Of a stretch of 45,470 nucleotides of DNA, positions 36,001-42,000 are shown in pieces. The DNA comes from a virus (Duplodnaviria > Heunggongvirae > Uroviricota > Caudoviricetes), in IMG/VR virus record IMGVR_UViG_2537562188_000009, positions 1 to 45,470 of that record. One strand, 5' to 3'. Positions within the stretch are counted from its first letter, which is position 1, and each line of letters begins with the position of its first letter. The position numbers were made by a program.

Positions 36001-39000
36001 GCACATGCATCCCAGACATTACCTAGGATTTTGCTACTCATACGGCACCTCCCAGACGCTTAAACATTTTTCCGGACTGAAACGCCACCAGCGGATAACT
36101 CAGGGTATGAGTACGTCCCTGAACCTGGCAGACAACCTTCTGGCTTTCTGTATTGACCAGGCAAACCCGCAGAACGTGTCCGTTGCTGGTGGTGAACCAC
36201 TGCCCCACACGGGGGCAATGGTTGTATCGGTGATACAGGAAATTAACGATGTGGCGGATCATGGACGCACCTCCTTGTCAGAACCATTCAGCCTGGAATC
36301 AACAAGTGCAGCACCAAAAACAGCATCACCTACACGGTCGTACAGTTTGCTGGCCAGCGGAGATTCAACAGCCTTAAGCATTGGATAAAGCTGGCTTGTC
36401 CAGATTTGATGGATTTCACGCAAATGCAGGTATACGCCTCTGGCGTTTCGTGCGACAGCTGACATATCAGACGCATCGGCACCTGATAAACTCTTCTCCA
36501 TCTGGTTAAAGGCATTGATGTATGCCTCTTTGAACCGGGCAGCACGTTTACCAGTGAAGCCCATAGCAAGAAACGCAAAGCCGTCGCGGGTTATTTGATA
36601 GCAAGGAAGTTTGCGGCCTGTGCAATCGGTGTAATCACTCACCGAAAAATTGCGGGCAGTGAATGATGCGGAACATTCAAGCGTGCGGATCTTTTTCAGT
36701 ACATCGTCATGACGTTTGGAGAAGAAGTTGGCAACAGCCAGGGATGAAGTAACAGCCTGACCATCAACGATGGCAATTTCAGGTTGAGTGAGGGTTGGGA
36801 TCGTAGCCATGATGGCAGCCTCTTTGGTGATTTTTAATAACTCACCACCAAGGCTTTCCACGACCTTATTGGTGGTGAGACGTACAGGGGTGGAAATACC
36901 GGTCACCAAAGAACCCGGCCCAACCGAAGTTGGCCCTGCACGCCCCACCATAATTTGGGCGTAATGCTGCTCATGACACAAAAAAACCGCAAGAGCGCGG
37001 CTGTGCGCTTTGGTGAATTCCGGGTTTCCACGCCCGGCACCCGCTTTATAAGGTGCCTGAACAGTGTAACGTCCCGAAATTGAGGAATCAATATTTTGGA
37101 GAACAATCATGCAGCACCCGCCAGTTCTTTATCGTGGGTGAATTCGCCATTCCAGTTTCTCTTCATGGGTAATGCACCTCTAAGATACTGGCGATAAATC
37201 CAGACCGCCCCTTTCTGGAGAAGAACTGGTGTATACGAATAAAACCCTTCTTCATAACCTGAATCGATATAGTGGTGACGTTCGGTCAGATACAGATCTC
37301 GGGCATATGCCTTTACACGCCATGCGGGGCTTCGCGATTCAGGACGCTCGTCATAAAGCCAGTTGTGAGCCTCCAGAAATGCTGTGATACGCTGAACATT
37401 TACTCCATTAAGTTGCTTGCAGAACTGAACCGGTGTCATGCCAGGCTGGAATAAATTTTCCAGATGTTCGATGTATTGGGCCTGACGATGAACGTAACTA
37501 ATTGCTCTGTTTTTAGCCTCATATTCATCCGCCCAGGCACGGGCAGCAGCAGCCGGATCGCTAAAATCTGGTAGGGATGTCATTGTGGTAAGACTGTAAT
37601 TCCCCGTTTTACGAATTGACGGAATTACCTCCGATGTAATCCACCGTTTAAAACGTCTTGCCTGTTTTTTTCGACTTTTGATAATCAGCGCATAGAGCCC
37701 GGATTCATTGACCAGCAAAGGCTTACGTCCCGAACCTAAGTAATCCTTATATTCGGTTTTATCTTCATCATCGATGGACTGAAGGGAGATAGCAGTATTT
37801 GTCAGCCCCAGCGCGTTACATATATCCACGGCAAAAAACCATGGTGTTGAATCAATGACCACACTACGAACTGATGACAACAATTCACCAGTGCTTGATT
37901 TAAAATCGAAAACTTTGATATTGTTTTTCACGTAATATCTCCGACGATAAACCCGACTGGCCGGTTTTCTCTGCCGGCCTTTCTTATTTCTGCCAACCAA
38001 TAACCTGAAATACCCCCATTTTCGGGTAATACCAGCAAGTCCCTCGCGGTTCTGCTTCCTCCATAACCCGATAAAAAGCAGCCATAAACGGTTCCACAGC
38101 AACAATTGCGCGACGAGACAACAATCCATCCGGCCTCATGAACTCATGGGGGTCGGTAGGGATCTGATATGCGTTCACCAGATTGCGGCATTTCGCATCT
38201 GACATACCCGTTTTCGCCGCCAGCTGACGATAGCCTGCATAACCATCGCGTATGGCGCCTCTTTTGATTTGTTCGACAGTTTCAGTAACGTGGGTGACTT
38301 TCTCTTCCACCTGCTCAAGACGTCTTTGTTGGCGAACAGCTTCAAGCGCCATTGCAGCAACCATTTCGATCTGGCTCATTGGTTTGCGGATTTGTTCTTC
38401 CAGTTCGCGCCAGCGGTCTACCAGACGGGCGGTGAATTCAGGGCAAAGCTGTGCGACAACAATGATGCTGTCGCGTTTGCCTTGTTCGCCTTCAAACAGA
38501 TAATGCTCGTGTTGAACTTTAAACCCTAAGTTATTGATTCTTTCGGAAACCTCAATTTGAGGAGACCGGACAACACCACCTTTGGCTAATGTTTCAATAG
38601 TGCGTTTTACATTGTCATGACGCTTACCCACCAACTCTGCGATCTCAACGCTGGTCATGGATGCTTTATCGGTAAAAATTGCGGTATTCATCTGATTGCT
38701 CCTTGAGAATGACATTTCAGAACTCACGCCAAAACGTATGCATCGTGAGTTACTGCTCGTGACAGTCAGTCTTTAATCTCTGGTAATACCGTTTGATTTT
38801 CGTAACGAATCAGGAATTCCATCTTCGGGATAAGGGTATAGATCAGGTCTTAACCCATGCGGAGTAACCTTCCATTCAACCAATTCACACACCCGTAAAA
38901 CAAAACGGGAAGGAACGGAGTTTTTAGAAAACCACAGGTTCACCGCTTGTGGCGTAACACCGATGTATCTCGCTATGGCGTTTTGAGGGATCAATTTACG

Positions 39001-42000
39001 CAACATGTCGTAATCATTCAGTTTTATCACAGCGCAGCTCCAATATTAACTTTACAAATCAAGAATACATCAAGAATAAATTAACATGCAAGTTTCAAAA
39101 GGATAGAATACACTAAAATCAAGTTAATATTTATGTGTATAAAGCCTCGACAGGAACTCACCATGAAGAATGTAAAAAGCACAGAAAATCGGATAGCAAT
39201 GATGCTGAAAACGAAAGGCTGGAGTCAGGCTGAACTAGCCCGTAAGCTGGGTGTAAGCGCGCAATCAGTACAATACTGGACTACAGGAAAGACGTTTCCC
39301 AGAAGCGATAAACTTGCACAGCTATCAGTAATTAGTGGTTATCCACAATCCTGGTTTTTGGGTGAAGATACCTCATCGACACACTCTTCAGCTGAAAAAC
39401 ACCATACAAGAGAAGACAGCGTTGTGTTCAATGTGCTGGATGTTGAATTCAGCTGCGGCGACGGAACTCATGTTCGGGGAGATCTAATTGATGTAGTACG
39501 CTCAATAGAACTTGATCCTGAATATGCCCGCCGCCTGGTCGGTAACAGAGCATTCAAGAACATAGAAATCGGTAACGCCAGAGGGGACAGCATGGCCCCA
39601 ACAATCGCCCCAGGTGACTTACTGTTTTTAGATAAAACAGTAACTTATTTTGACGGTGATGGCATTTATGCATTTTGCTTTGATGGCGAATGTTACGTCA
39701 AACGACTTCAAAAAATTGGAAGCAAGATCATGGTCTTATCAGACAATCCCAACTATCAGCCGTGGAGCATCGAAAAAGAGGGAATGGCGCTGCTATATAT
39801 CCAGTCAAAAGTCATCTCATCGGTACCATTCAATATCAACAGATTTGGTTAGTTATTGATTTTAAATTAAATTATTGGTCACACATTACAAAAAAATCAA
39901 GTTTATCAATTTTTGATTGACACACGTTTTCCTGATACATAATATCTCACCATCAATTATATATTGATTAACTTCAACTTAGAATTGCATGGTGATGATA
40001 TGGAAGCCTTACAAACAACACCAAAAACATGTAGCCTCAATACTTACAACAAGGTTTTATGTGATGATTTAGACCTCGATTCTTTTGCATTAACCATCGC
40101 AAACCTGCTCAGTGCTGTTCGCACCTTCAACCTCCTGGATGATACGCGATTAAAAGAGGTTGGGTTTGATGTGCTGGAATTTACTCATGAATATGCTTTA
40201 GCGATCGCATCGACAAAACAACAACATTCTATTCGCTCAGGCAACAAGATAGCCTGCATACGCACCAAACGTGAAGCCTGCGGCTTAACAACTGCCGAAC
40301 TCGCCAGGCTGCTCGATCTCGATGAAGAAATTATCATCCAGTGGGAGAGCGGAGAGTACGAACCAACCATCAGCATGCTTATCCCCCTGGCAAACGTCCT
40401 GGGATGCGATCCGCTTTCTCTGCTGAGTGAAAAAAACAGCGAGTCAGTTATTCGCGTAAATGTGCCTGAAGTCCATGTGGAAAGTATTGGCGCACGCATC
40501 AAAAGCGCCCGTACAAAACTGGGATTAACCGAATCTGATCTTGCCCGCATGATTCATACCTATAGTGACCCCATAAACGACTGGGAATGCGGCATCCATG
40601 AAGTTCCAGCTGCTCAGATAGTACCACTGGCCAGTGCGCTTAATTGTGACTTGATGTGGTTGTTAACGGGAAAATCAGAAGCAAAGGAGTAGCAACAATG
40701 ACTGGCAATATCCATGATAAGTATGAAGGCTTATGCCTGGCACCGGATTCCTTTGCAAACAATATCCATAATTTATTATGCGCAGTTGTTGTATTACAAA
40801 TGTCAGACAACGATGCAATAAAAAGAACAGGTGATGAAGTTCTTGAATTTGCACGTTGCTATGCTGAAGCAGCTGCTGAAAAAGAACTAACCAGTTAAAT
40901 AGAACAAGTCATCTCCGGATAATATATTACGGCTTAATCGCCGGGGATTATCACACCCTTAATCCACAGGAGGTTTTATATGACCTTTATAAAACATAAG
41001 GCATCACACAAAACAGCCTGCCTTATTGCACAGCACGGGAAAAATCACATGCATATTGCCTGCTTGTTTCTGCGTAAAGCATACGGGAGATAATAATGCA
41101 TCAGAAAACAGCAGAACACGAACAAACCAGAGTATTGCTGACCATCAAAAACGGGAAAGTAATATTAATTCGTCATGTTCATGACGATGAATTTGTAGGA
41201 AATCTTTCAACATTCCTGTTTATTGCAGAAAAGGCAGGATATGACGTTATTGCACCAGCAGATGAAGATGAGGAATAAATTTCATGCACTACGCTGAATT
41301 CCAGGCTGAAGCAACAGCCAATGGTATACAAACAGGCAGTATGACTATTGATTATCACGACGCCATACGCCGTCTGGATGCTGGAGAATTCGATACTCCT
41401 AATGTGCGAGGTTTACGTATCCTTCAGTGTCTCGCGCAAGCTGACGAAGCAGGATTACTGGGAAAACTTCCGGTTGAGATGAAGGTTGCCCAGTGGCGAT
41501 GGTTGTATGTGACGACATTCATCAACGAAGAAGAAGACAAGAACGGCACAATTGATGTCCCGAATGAACACGGAACAACAGATCGCGCCGTAATATATAA
41601 CGGGAAGCATGGAGTTATGACTATATACCCTAGTCCCATTCGGTTTGCCTTACAGCAGTATATTGAATGGAATTTAATTCAAACATATGGCGAGGCTGAG
41701 GGAATGGGAAGAGCGCTGTTTCTTTATCAGAAAATGCTCACCACTTCCCCTGATAAAGGTTTCATTCTTTCAGATATAGGTCGAGAAGGGCTTGAACTCC
41801 TTCTGGATGAAATAATTAACGACCTGAATACTCATGGTATGCCAGAAGGCCAGTGACACATTAAATATTAAGAAGAATATAACTCTTCCGTTTTTTACTA
41901 ACCGTTTATATGAAAAGCGACCGTGAATTAAGCAGAGTAAAACTGCTTTTAATCCTTGCCACAGTACTGACACTAACAGAAATCATTATTCTCTTTATTG

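Follow-up and report, generated by a model that had tools for sequence, protein, structure and literature searches.

The annotated Ash extension of a Rha gene in an Stx2d prophage coincides with a predicted IsrK-like and C4 antisense RNA pair

Three genes of the Rha/Bro regulator type lie between the cro-like gene and the replication genes of an Stx2d prophage, and the last of them is annotated with a 100-residue N-terminal extension, which raises the question of what this extension is and how the early-right operon is controlled. The window, by which we mean the whole stretch of 45,470 nucleotides analyzed (IMG/VR record IMGVR_UViG_2537562188_000009), is the Stx2d prophage that E. coli O91 RM7190 carries at yecE (100% identity); it is 100% identical to NZ_CP015244.1, and its gene starts agree with the RefSeq/PGAP annotation of that sequence. 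A sequence-only reading had proposed the order cro-like, Rha, Bro-N, Rha, 74-aa ORF, and initiator, and this was borne out by Pfam and PHROGs, in agreement with RefSeq, with all the minus-strand genes at the positions given. The cro-like HTH gene (38773..39030, minus strand; a RefSeq CDS with PGAP start 39006, the longest ORF starting from GTG 39030) matches the YdaS_toxin/Cro-type HTH in Pfam (E 2.6e-9) and phrog_35 in PHROGs (E 9e-20). Divergent from it is a CI-type repressor gene (39163..39852, plus strand) with HTH_3 and Peptidase_S24 (E 3.9e-17) domains and a match to phrog_4 (E 3e-52). At the other end, on the minus strand, are the 74-aa ORF (36038..36262; phrog_1153, function unknown, E 1e-43; a weak DUF4222 match, E 0.038), the O-like HTH_36 replication initiator (35115..36041; Pfam E 2.8e-12, phrog_270 E 2.5e-80), and then the DnaC-like (34226-35104) and DnaB (32829-34229) genes identified by PHROGs/Pfam and RefSeq; a phrog_50 match falls within this replication set. 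The Bro-N gene, second Rha gene, 74-aa ORF, and initiator gene are chained by ATGA overlaps, the 74-aa ORF starting in the Rha stop and ending in the initiator start.

The three regulator genes are real and already annotated, and their assignments hold up in domain searches. Rha1 (37984..38691, minus strand, 235 aa; ribosome-binding site AAGGAG 8 nt 5' of ATG 38691) carries a Phage_pRha winged-helix domain at its N terminus (38 bits; cutoff 29.9), has an uncharacterized C-terminal half, and matches phrog_63, "anti-repressor Ant" (E 2.4e-50). The Bro-N protein (37107..37931, minus strand, 274 aa, GTG start with a GGAG site) scores 74.3 bits against 25.6 for Bro-N and matches phrog_130 (E 3.9e-58), while the ANT/KilAC similarity of its C-terminal half is sub-threshold (17.9 bits against 25.3, E 0.0042). 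The second Rha ORF (36259-37110, minus strand, 283 aa including the leader) carries Phage_pRha at residues 121-206 with 106 bits. Tandem duplication as the origin of the three proteins is ruled out, because Rha1 and Rha2 share 27% identity across 77 residues only and the Bro-N protein has no significant match to Rha1. Antirepressor activity of Rha- and Bro-N-type proteins is a database label only, and the roles that we suggest for the three proteins are putative.

Pfam and PHROGs profile searches found no match to the Phage_CII, N, cIII, or exo/bet/gam families among the annotated genes, nor among another 44 small ORFs in the 30.7-44.2 kb interval, and the earlier view that cII, N, and exo/bet/gam are not recognizable stands for both sets. 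The operon resembles the early-right operon of lambda (cro-tR1-cII-O-P, with N antitermination) in the slot between cro and the replication genes, in the divergent cI, and in a Q antiterminator farther downstream, but differs from it in that no cII, N, cIII, or red genes were found.

The start of the third gene had been left as either 36810 or 37110, and this ambiguity is genuine. From ATG 36810 the frame encodes Rha2 proper (36259..36810, minus strand, 183 aa; TIGR02681, 102 bits), consisting of the Phage_pRha domain and a C-terminal helical hairpin; this codon is an invariant methionine, M101 of the longer ORF, and aligns with the experimentally defined start of anrP in the Salmonella prophage Gifsy-1. 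The ATG at 37110 overlaps the Bro-N stop (ATGA), and the 100-residue extension that it opens (36811..37110, minus strand), annotated as an Ash domain, is real: residues 15-111 match the Pfam Phage_ASH profile with 56.8 bits. This open frame spans a promoter-like site, an IsrK-like RNA, a C4-type RNA, and the C4 target boxes, and the 100-codon "extension" is thus, on Rfam and alignment evidence, a predicted pair of small regulatory RNA genes. The third regulator on the immediate-early transcript had been counted as one more protein gene; it is more than that, as it comes with its own promoter-like site and intrinsic terminator and with an antisense RNA of the C4 type.

The promoter-like site (37063..37091, minus strand), read from the sequence, consists of a -35 hexamer TTGATT (37091-37086), a 17-nt spacer, and a -10 hexamer TACACT (37068-37063), with a predicted transcription start at about 37056. 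It matches 8 of 12 consensus positions and is not flagged by a default consensus scan. Sequence similarity among cassettes starts at the -35 hexamer. In alignment A4, with Gifsy-1 set aside, 33 of 34 cassettes retain this hexamer (the exception is TTGACC), and all 34 share the same -10 hexamer. The IsrK-like RNA (36980..37056, minus strand, 77 nt; Rfam RF01394 isrK, 65.3 bits, model positions 1-77 of 77) contains box a1 GUGGAAA (37031-37025) and box b1 UCACCAAAG (37016-37008), and ends in an intrinsic terminator with a short stem (hairpin 37002-36985, then a U-run), which is also the sole terminator-like site with a U-run found by scanning the coding strand from cro to the initiator. It is followed by the C4-type antisense RNA (36868..36955, minus strand, 88 nt; RF01695 C4, 83.6 bits, model positions 1-87 of 87); both matches are on the coding strand and cover the whole model, the gathering scores being 50 for isrK and 45 for C4. 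The C4 RNA has a predicted fold of -44.6 kcal/mol with the Rfam architecture, box b' CUUUGGUGA (36911-36903) in the loop of hairpin 2, box a' UUUCCAC (36896-36890) in a single-stranded joint, and a 3' end of ...CACCACCAAU. Boxes a' and b' are complementary both to a1/b1 and to a second pair in the C4 target region (36808..36861, minus strand): a2 GUGGAAA (36861-36855) and b2 UCACCAAAG (36830-36822). Box b2 runs into the Shine-Dalgarno sequence GAGG (36822-36819), 8 nt 5' of ATG 36810-36808, and the calculated duplex energies are -15.0 kcal/mol for b':b2 and -9.1 kcal/mol for a':a2.

Among relatives, covariation is seen in the RNA helices and in every intermolecular pairing tested. The isrK and C4 pair is present in 17 of 17 Ash regions of 12 related loci, which include phiP27 L16, the Eru7 reference phage, ASU11, and stand-alone "ash family protein" genes. 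Across an alignment of 35 distinct cassettes, both sides change in 8 of 9 pairs of the b'-b2 helix (96.5% of cells paired), 6 of 7 of a1-a' (98.4%), and 7 of 9 of b1-b' (97.4%), against only 33-52% when the partner is shifted by 1-3 columns as a control; within C4 itself the helices reach 99.8-100% pairing and include 7 compensatory pairs. Related prophages show 5 a-classes and 7 b-classes of boxes in 9 combinations, the a and b boxes co-varying, and a register-free search of cognate, non-chimeric units recovers 6-7 of 7 pairs for the a-boxes and 8-9 of 9 for the b-boxes. Box b2 ends 11 nt 5' of the ATG in 10 of 12 box-combination rows, the two exceptions being one chimeric unit and one tie-break in the register-free search.

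Among the closest known systems is isrK-orf45-anrP of Gifsy-1, with 76% nucleotide identity to the module of the window: the same Rfam pair occurs in like order and spacing, the locus also gives c4-a1b1, the -10 region TATATT upstream of isrK aligns with the window -10, and b2 lies on the Shine-Dalgarno sequence of anrP. The Gifsy-1 isrK promoter is active, and regulation of isrK-orf45-anrP has been demonstrated (Hershko-Shalev et al. 2016, PMC4825925). There orf45 has its first AUG at position 107 (PMC4825925), and the window has an in-frame ATG, M54 (36949..36951, minus strand), at +106 from the predicted transcription start; M54-V55-G56 is invariant, an ATG lies 46-47 codons 5' of M101 in 41 of 41 units, and by this alignment the M54 ATG is the predicted counterpart of that AUG. 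The orf45 peptide MVGRMGEPKGSP... is encoded by the same nucleotide stretch in another reading frame; orf45 is a separate frame that ends in AUGA, whereas the window frame is fused to its cargo and reaches back to the Bro-N-coupled ATG. The cargos are not homologous (AnrP versus Rha2, E 0.83), so AnrP function is not transferable to Rha2, and the Gifsy-1 locus is downstream of Q rather than between cro and the replication genes.

At the DNA level the module directly resembles the P1 and P7 c4 genes (84-85% identity over a 55-nt stretch of the window C4) as well as the N15 (gene 32 region) and SfV immunity regions. In the P1/P7 immI operon (c4-icd-ant1/ant2), C4 reportedly carries a'/b' and has targets a1,b1 upstream and a2,b2 downstream. 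There the first downstream gene has its ribosome-binding site under b2, and specificity classes differ between related phages. The window shares the duplicated targets flanking C4, the position of b2, and the specificity classes, but has no icd-like gene, has a Rha-family cargo rather than P1 Ant, and lies 5' of the replication genes inside the PR operon instead of forming a separate immunity operon. P4 (seqA-CI RNA-seqC/seqB) and N15 (CA RNA) are alike in having a processed C4/CI-type RNA with repeated complementary boxes in the same transcript, gating downstream lytic or replication genes. They act mainly via transcription termination in a satellite and a plasmid prophage, whereas b2 of the window is on the Shine-Dalgarno sequence, as in P1, and the cassette resides in a lambdoid Stx phage whose CI is cleavable.

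The surrounding gene arrangement is not new, being preceded by phiP27 (2002) and the Eru6/7/9 Stx-phage types, in which Rha or Rha/Ash proteins adjoin cI (Fagerlund et al. 2022, PMC8951638). Like the window, Eru6/7/9 and phiP27 (L14-L16) have Rha and Rha/Ash by cI/cro, then HTH_36, DnaC-like, and DnaB genes. The Eru7 reference is 92.5% identical in nucleotides from cI through cro to Rha1 and has no Bro-N gene; phiP27 has Rha1 and Bro-N at 92.7% and then an Ash-containing gene, but differs in its immunity region and its non-Rha cargo. The Ash domain was left without an assigned function in that classification, which does not mention the RNAs, and the Rha/Bro-type genes were placed in the replication unit (PMC8951638). 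A role of Rha, Bro-N, and Rha as accessory parts of a replication module, in the style of the Eru classification, rather than as lysis-lysogeny regulators, would suit genes that lie directly 5' of the initiator, the ATGA chain, and the related IMG/VR loci, where a homolog of the 74-aa ORF follows the Ash-Rha gene in 80 of 80 and replication genes come next in most of those with flanking sequence. We consider it unlikely, since profile searches found a replication-type domain in none of the three, phages with closely related DnaC-like and DnaB genes differ in whether they have Rha1 and Bro-N, and, to our knowledge, every characterized C4-type gate controls anti-immunity or lytic genes.

That Ash is a true protein domain fused to Rha (Pfam PF10554, PGAP), with a functional 283-aa protein and secondary or coincidental RNA matches, would fit the match to the full Phage_ASH profile, the occurrence of PF09669 with PF10554 in 115 of the 120 listed among 2646 homologs, the frame that is open in 40 of 41 variants, and the conserved ATG about 100 codons 5' of M101, which in most cases overlaps the stop codon of the preceding ORF. 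In addition, Gifsy-1 ORF45, over the second half of the region, is translated (PMC4825925). The pattern of change nevertheless makes this reading distinctly improbable. The leader has a dN/dS of 0.7-2.6, against 0.02-0.34 in the adjacent Rha domain, and a dS of 0.06-0.14 in four comparisons in which Rha-domain dS is 0.79-1.06, so that synonymous change is several-fold lower. Variable sites per codon position number 50/52/47 in the leader, with no third-position excess, and 55/45/91 in the Rha domain, and AlphaFold2 pLDDT is 24-33 for residues 1-110, as opposed to 77-88 for residues 121-270 of the 283-aa ORF. The residues that vary coincide exactly with the RNA pairing boxes, which co-vary three ways, and in Gifsy-1 the corresponding frame is broken by stops although the RNAs are conserved. 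For the leader, then, no fold is predicted with confidence and constraint of the protein type is absent; what constraint it has is at the nucleotide, not the amino-acid, level. The conserved open frame, which Pfam models as a domain, may still yield a functional peptide.

Replacement of CII by one of the Rha proteins, as an early DNA-binding activator of the repressor and integrase promoters that establishes lysogeny, is suggested by the position of Rha1 at the cII slot, by the winged-helix DNA-binding nature of the Rha domain, and by the lack of a cII homolog in the searched genes and small ORFs. It seems hardly probable, because Rha1 and Bro-N are retained in phiP27 despite a different cI/cro region, cassette content varies among phages with a common immunity region, and the PHROG relatives are labeled antirepressors, the opposite function. 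That the RNA cassette is an inactive relic carried by recombination is very improbable: chimeric units with mismatched boxes do exist (L023 4711-4997, L078 552-838), but in the window the a and b pairings are perfect, the promoter, terminator, and C4 helices are intact, the Rfam scores are well above the gathering thresholds, and compensatory evolution across classes indicates ongoing selection.

We conclude that the third gene is probably an RNA-gated cassette of the P1 immI/Gifsy-1 isrK-orf45-anrP type, placed just upstream of the replication genes. The suggestion of non-lambda control thus gains support, although the mechanism would be an RNA switch at the third gene and not a set of tandem antirepressor genes. 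The early-right operon would first supply Rha1 and the Bro-N/ANT-like protein, early proteins with DNA-binding domains, followed by a self-contained cassette of a sigma-70-like promoter, the IsrK-like RNA with its terminator, the C4 RNA, a2/b2, and the Rha2 gene, which the RNA pair most likely switches on and off. By analogy with P1/P7, P4, N15, and Gifsy-1, C4 RNA would pair with a2 and b2 and block Rha2 translation, and Rho-dependent polarity on the replication genes that follow may result; the short IsrK-like RNA, bearing the same boxes, would compete for C4 and relieve the block. In Gifsy-1, IsrK is described as an activator acting on mRNA structure and the C4-like RNA is given no repressor role (PMC4825925), and we therefore infer the division into repressor (C4) and competitor (IsrK-like) from P1 and P4. 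On PR transcripts, ribosomes coupled from the Bro-N stop could read the Ash frame through the terminator and C4, which would override the gate. What is new is that the Ash extension holds full-length matches to the isrK and C4 RNAs. Rha2, to judge from the cargo of characterized C4-type gates, is most likely an anti-immunity or lytic-commitment factor.

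The early-right operon lies on the minus strand of the window, which matches E. coli O91 str. RM7190 (NZ_CP015244.1) at 100% identity. The window is the Stx2d prophage of that strain, integrated beside yecE, and ends at the integrase stop codon. The gene order proposed by the sequence-only reading (cro-like, Rha, Bro-N, Rha, 74-aa ORF, initiator) was confirmed by Pfam and PHROG searches. A YdaS/Cro-type HTH gene (38773-39006/39030) is followed by the first Rha gene, Rha1 (37984-38691; Phage_pRha PF09669, 38.0 bits, threshold 29.9; AAGGAG before ATG 38691), the Bro-N protein gene (37107-37931; Bro-N PF02498, 74.3 bits versus 25.6; GGAG before GTG 37931), a 283-aa ORF (36259-37110) whose residues 121-206 match Phage_pRha (106.1 bits versus 29.9), the 74-aa ORF (36038-36262; phrog_1153), an HTH_36 initiator gene (35115-36041), and then DnaC-like and DnaB genes. 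The gene for an S24-type CI (39163-39852) is divergent from the operon. The Rha and Bro-N assignments are upheld by these scores above the gathering thresholds, and the gene starts are those of PGAP, with which the ribosome-binding sites before ATG 38691 and GTG 37931 agree. Rha2, the Phage_pRha protein starting from ATG 36810 within the 283-aa ORF, also matches TIGR02681 (102 bits, cutoff 45.95), and ANT (PF03374) reaches 17.9 bits in the Bro-N protein against a threshold of 25.3, covering profile positions 28-105 of 108. No solved-structure relatives of Rha1, the Bro-N protein or the 283-aa ORF were found by sequence search. The 53-nt gap between Rha1 and Bro-N contains a GC-rich hairpin (GGCCGG-N9-CCGGCC, 37959-37979) with its T-run on the plus (antisense) strand, which looks like a terminator of antisense transcription rather than of the operon. 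The 74-aa ORF has a weak match to DUF4222 (E 0.038); many E. coli genomes annotate the gene after Ash-Rha as DUF4222, and a clear DUF4222 gene (E 2.1e-15) is found in the leftward operon (43497-43739, plus strand).

As that reading had supposed, Pfam and PHROG searches of the annotated genes returned no member of the CII, N, CIII or Red families, and the same was true of 44 extra small ORFs taken from the coding strands of the 30.7-44.2 kb interval. The single "CII-like regulator" label, phrog_4836, falls on a double-HTH_3 protein (40000-40692, plus strand) and is not backed by Pfam. A strong promoter-like sequence, TTGACA-17-TAATAT (39917-39945, plus strand), lies between cI and this gene; the promoter probably corresponds to PL, with the gene as the first of its operon. 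Further along the leftward operon, a 60-aa ORF (41096-41278, plus strand; phrog_340) weakly matches "anti-repressor" PHROG families at their C-terminal ends (phrog_4792, E 1.6e-5).

The arrangement of genes was itself already known and is ordinary as a gene list. Fagerlund et al. 2022 (PMC8951638) place Phage_pRha proteins, some with an Ash domain, beside cI in Eru6, Eru7 and Eru9 Stx phages and note that the Ash domain lacks an assigned function. Genes L14 and L15 of phiP27 correspond to Rha1 and Bro-N at 92.7% nucleotide identity and are followed by the Ash-containing L16, while the Eru7 reference phage has the order cro, Rha1, Ash-Rha, small ORF, O, without a Bro-N gene. Other strains carry an extra stand-alone "ash family protein" gene. 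Among 80 IMG/VR loci with Ash-Rha, a homolog of the 74-aa ORF follows in all 80; Rha1 and Bro-N are optional, and Ash-Rha units occur up to three in tandem. A 3.3-kb query was at least 80% present in 19 of 5426 complete E. coli genomes, and parts of it in 1747. Origin of the three regulators by tandem duplication was ruled out, and they are not recent duplicates (BLASTP of Rha1 against Bro-N, E 0.97; of Rha1 against Rha2, 27% identity over 77 residues). The "antirepressor" labels of Rha1 and Bro-N are database names only; with low confidence, we regard Rha1 and the Bro-N/ANT-like protein as early DNA-binding-domain proteins driven from PR. The proposal of non-lambda control of the lysis-lysogeny decision, made from these tandem genes, stood in part, and what sustains it is an RNA switch that had been missed.

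The proposed switch lies in the first 100 codons of the 283-aa ORF (36811-37110), the N-terminal extension that corresponds to the Ash region. An Rfam search at gathering thresholds (RF01394 isrK, 50 bits; RF01695 C4 antisense RNA, 45 bits) identified two RNAs on the coding (minus) strand: isrK at 37056-36980 (65.3 bits, model positions 1-77 of 77) and C4 at 36955-36868 (83.6 bits, positions 1-87 of 87). RF03163 (c4-a1b1) overlaps RF01394; the search gave a match to it only in Gifsy-1. The isrK and C4 pair is present in 17 of 17 Ash regions from 12 related loci, including phiP27 L16, the Eru7 reference, ASU11 and stand-alone "ash family" genes. The module is similar at the DNA level to the P1/P7 c4 genes, the N15 gene 32 region and the SfV "immunity region". 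A total of 138 phage records contain it, including at least 73 named Stx phages. It is a cassette of the C4/IsrK kind, unannotated until now. Elsewhere in the window, a full-length Rfam match to the STnc100 sRNA (27604-27816, minus strand; 158.7 bits, gathering score 47) lies directly downstream of the stx2 B-subunit gene (27891-28160) and adjoins an IraM-like gene.

All elements of the cassette are on the minus strand. A promoter-like sequence, TTGATT-17-TACACT (37091-37063), ends 7 nt before isrK model position 1. The IsrK-like RNA contains box a1 (GUGGAAA, 37031-37025), box b1 (UCACCAAAG, 37016-37008) and a terminator hairpin with U-run (37002-36985), the latter found independently by a terminator scan. 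By default settings, the promoter and terminator scan gave counts not above those of shuffled sequences and missed the cassette promoter, the IsrK terminator being its sole useful result; no LexA box was seen by eye at the cassette promoter. The C4 RNA has a minimum-free-energy fold of -44.6 kcal/mol with the Rfam architecture of a long closing stem and two hairpins, and its 3' sequence reads ...CACCACCAAU. Box b' (CUUUGGUGA, 36911-36903) occupies the loop of its second hairpin and box a' (UUUCCAC, 36896-36890) a single-stranded joint. Downstream of C4 are the target boxes a2 (GUGGAAA, 36861-36855) and b2 (UCACCAAAG, 36830-36822), and b2 extends into a GAGG that precedes ATG 36810 by 8 nt, a geometry in which b':b2 pairing would occlude the Shine-Dalgarno sequence of Rha2. 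Pairing in the window is perfect (7/7 for a-boxes, 9/9 for b-boxes), with duplex energies of -15.0 (b':b2), -9.1 (a':a2), -14.6 (b':b1) and -8.9 kcal/mol (a':a1). Whole-molecule duplex energies are moderately discriminating, being matched by 2/500 mononucleotide shuffles of the leader and 16/500 of the IsrK-like RNA. The leader segment CUUGGUGGUGAG (36841-36852) is complementary at 11 of 12 positions to CUCACCACCAAU (36868-36879), the 3' strand of the stem that closes C4; it is kept across most box classes and may fold alternatively, much as in the A/B conformers described for Gifsy-1.

The boxes co-evolve. Among 35 distinct cassettes, both sides had changed in 8 of 9 pairs of the b'-b2 helix (96.5% of cells paired), 6 of 7 pairs of a1-a' (98.4%) and 7 of 9 pairs of b1-b' (97.4%), and the internal C4 helices showed 7 compensatory pairs with 99.8-100% of cells paired. 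With the 3' partner slid by 1-3 columns as a control, pairing was 33-52%, and neither the observed covariation scores nor the percentages of paired cells were reached in any of 500 shuffles. Alignment shifts defeat column-based counts for the a'-a2 pairs, for which a register-free search was used. This search distinguished 5 a-classes and 7 b-classes in 9 combinations; every class fits its own two targets, and b1 differs from b2 only by G-U-compatible changes. In the non-Gifsy-1 cassettes, the -35 hexamer is kept in 33 of 34 (the exception is TTGACC) and the -10 hexamer and ATG in 34 of 34, with a GAGG or GGGG Shine-Dalgarno sequence also kept. Judged by sequence comparison, the box classes and their covariation are the signature expected of P1/P7-type C4 immunity specificities. 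Up to three isrK-C4-Rha units occur in tandem per prophage (related loci L023, 3038-4997; L024, 3896-5889; L078, 552-838), and in some, chimeric units b2 belongs to a different class from b1 and b', suggesting recombination between units and possible cross-regulation.

The alternative is that the Ash region is a protein domain, as its annotation implies. Phage_ASH (PF10554) matches residues 15-111 of the 283-aa ORF with 56.8 bits (threshold 26), and the Ash plus Rha architecture has 2646 homologs, with both domains in 115 of the 120 listed. Neither protein-like evolution nor a confident fold was found in the Phage_ASH region when dN/dS, codon positions and pLDDT were considered. In an AlphaFold2 model built from 32 aligned sequences, residues 1-110 had no structure (pLDDT 24-33, compared with 77-88 for the Rha domain), and Foldseek of this model against the PDB returned nothing at E < 0.001, the best non-significant matches being PadR/VanR winged-helix regulators. 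Against ten relatives, dN/dS was 0.7-2.6 for codons 1-100 versus 0.02-0.34 for the Rha domain, and in four of the ten comparisons leader dS was 0.06-0.14 where that of the Rha domain was 0.79-1.06. Variable columns are distributed over the three codon positions as 50/52/47 in the leader and 55/45/91 in the Rha domain. The Ash region thus behaves unlike a protein, and constraint acts on it at the nucleotide level. The RefSeq CDS 36259-37110 spans two RNA genes, a promoter and a terminator, as do the CDS of all 17 Ash regions checked. The 283-aa gene matches 2511 of 5426 complete E. coli genomes, mostly via the Ash part; therefore, PF10554 itself and many CDS named "Rha family" or "ash family protein" probably represent translated RNA. 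Many Ash-Rha homologs (P0004, P0010, P0019-P0021 and others) also bear the legacy NCBI name "peptidase", for which there is no supporting domain match.

The closest characterized relative is in Gifsy-1, where Rfam matches to isrK, C4 and c4-a1b1 fall exactly at the isrK/orf45 positions published by Hershko-Shalev et al. The Gifsy-1 module is 76% identical to that of the window, and the anrP ATG aligns with ATG 36810. The Gifsy-1 operon is driven by the isrK promoter; some transcripts pass the IsrK terminator, and the read-through mRNA is translationally silent; IsrK provided in trans activates orf45 and, through translational coupling, anrP (PMC4825925). In orf45, nucleotides are conserved and amino acids are not (PMC4825925). 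The first AUG of orf45 (+107) is the counterpart of the invariant M54 of the 283-aa ORF (ATG 36951, +106). Stops interrupt the upstream cargo frame of Gifsy-1, where orf45 uses a different reading frame, whereas the Ash frame of the window is open; therefore, the conserved entity is the RNAs and not the "Ash" ORF. Transfer of AnrP function to Rha2 was ruled out, there being no homology (BLASTP of Rha2 against STM2616, E 0.83). The two loci thus share a homologous RNA gate in front of non-homologous proteins, which makes the gate a portable element with variable cargo. In P1/P7 immI, icd and ant1/ant2 follow c4, whereas in the window Rha2, with Phage_pRha only, and then the 74-aa ORF follow; no Icd, ANT or AntA domain match was obtained for Rha2 or the 74-aa ORF. 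Within the literature library searched, no paper linked an isrK/C4 gate to Stx phages or Eru types.

By analogy with P1/P7, P4, N15 and Gifsy-1, C4, which would be processed by RNase P, would block translation of Rha2, and this might also cause Rho-dependent polarity that reaches the 74-aa ORF and the replication genes. The IsrK-like RNA would titrate C4, translation driven from PR would override the gate, and Rha2 is most likely a lytic-commitment or anti-immunity factor. No stop interrupts the Rha frame between the -35 hexamer and M101 (ATG 36810) in 40 of 41 distinct cassettes; the other two frames contain 3-8 and 0-5 stops. About two-thirds of units have an ATG approximately 100 codons upstream of M101, usually overlapping the stop codon of the preceding ORF (the Bro-N gene in the window) as ATGA; in units without it, the open frame runs further upstream or begins elsewhere. 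In L038-L077, the largest group (38 of the 80 IMG/VR loci), the frame extends approximately 100 codons further upstream of the cassette, and the resulting 383-aa ORFs also begin at an ATGA overlap with the preceding gene. The open frame suggests that ribosome passage matters. PR transcripts include ATG 37110 and can be translated through both the terminator and the C4 RNA, which is not possible for those that start at the internal promoter, at approximately 37056.

A joint reading of these observations, which we put forward tentatively and think more probably wrong than right, is that the Ash frame is a ribosome track rather than a protein domain, that ribosomes on PR transcripts open the gate, and that the RNA boxes form a second layer of immunity. 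Ribosomes coupled from the Bro-N gene would pass the IsrK terminator and melt the C4 RNA, and N-less Stx phages of Eru6/7/9 type would thereby bring early transcription to the replication genes, Q and stx; where transcription begins at the internal promoter, the isrK and C4 RNAs would keep those genes shut. If this is true, the nine or more a/b specificity combinations would constitute a second, RNA-based immunity layer, which could set the cross-talk of co-resident Stx prophages with P4-like or PICI satellites and thereby affect how readily prophages are induced and how much toxin they yield. The cassette has practical consequences for annotation and provides a testable link to Stx-phage regulation, with the box classes predicting which elements are able to cross-regulate. 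Among the Stx phages bearing Rha/Ash is Eru7, which is reported to be Western Europe's most widespread Stx2 phage type. Placed between PR on one side and the replication genes, Q and stx on the other, a C4-type gate is a candidate explanation of why prophages differ in stability and toxin production.
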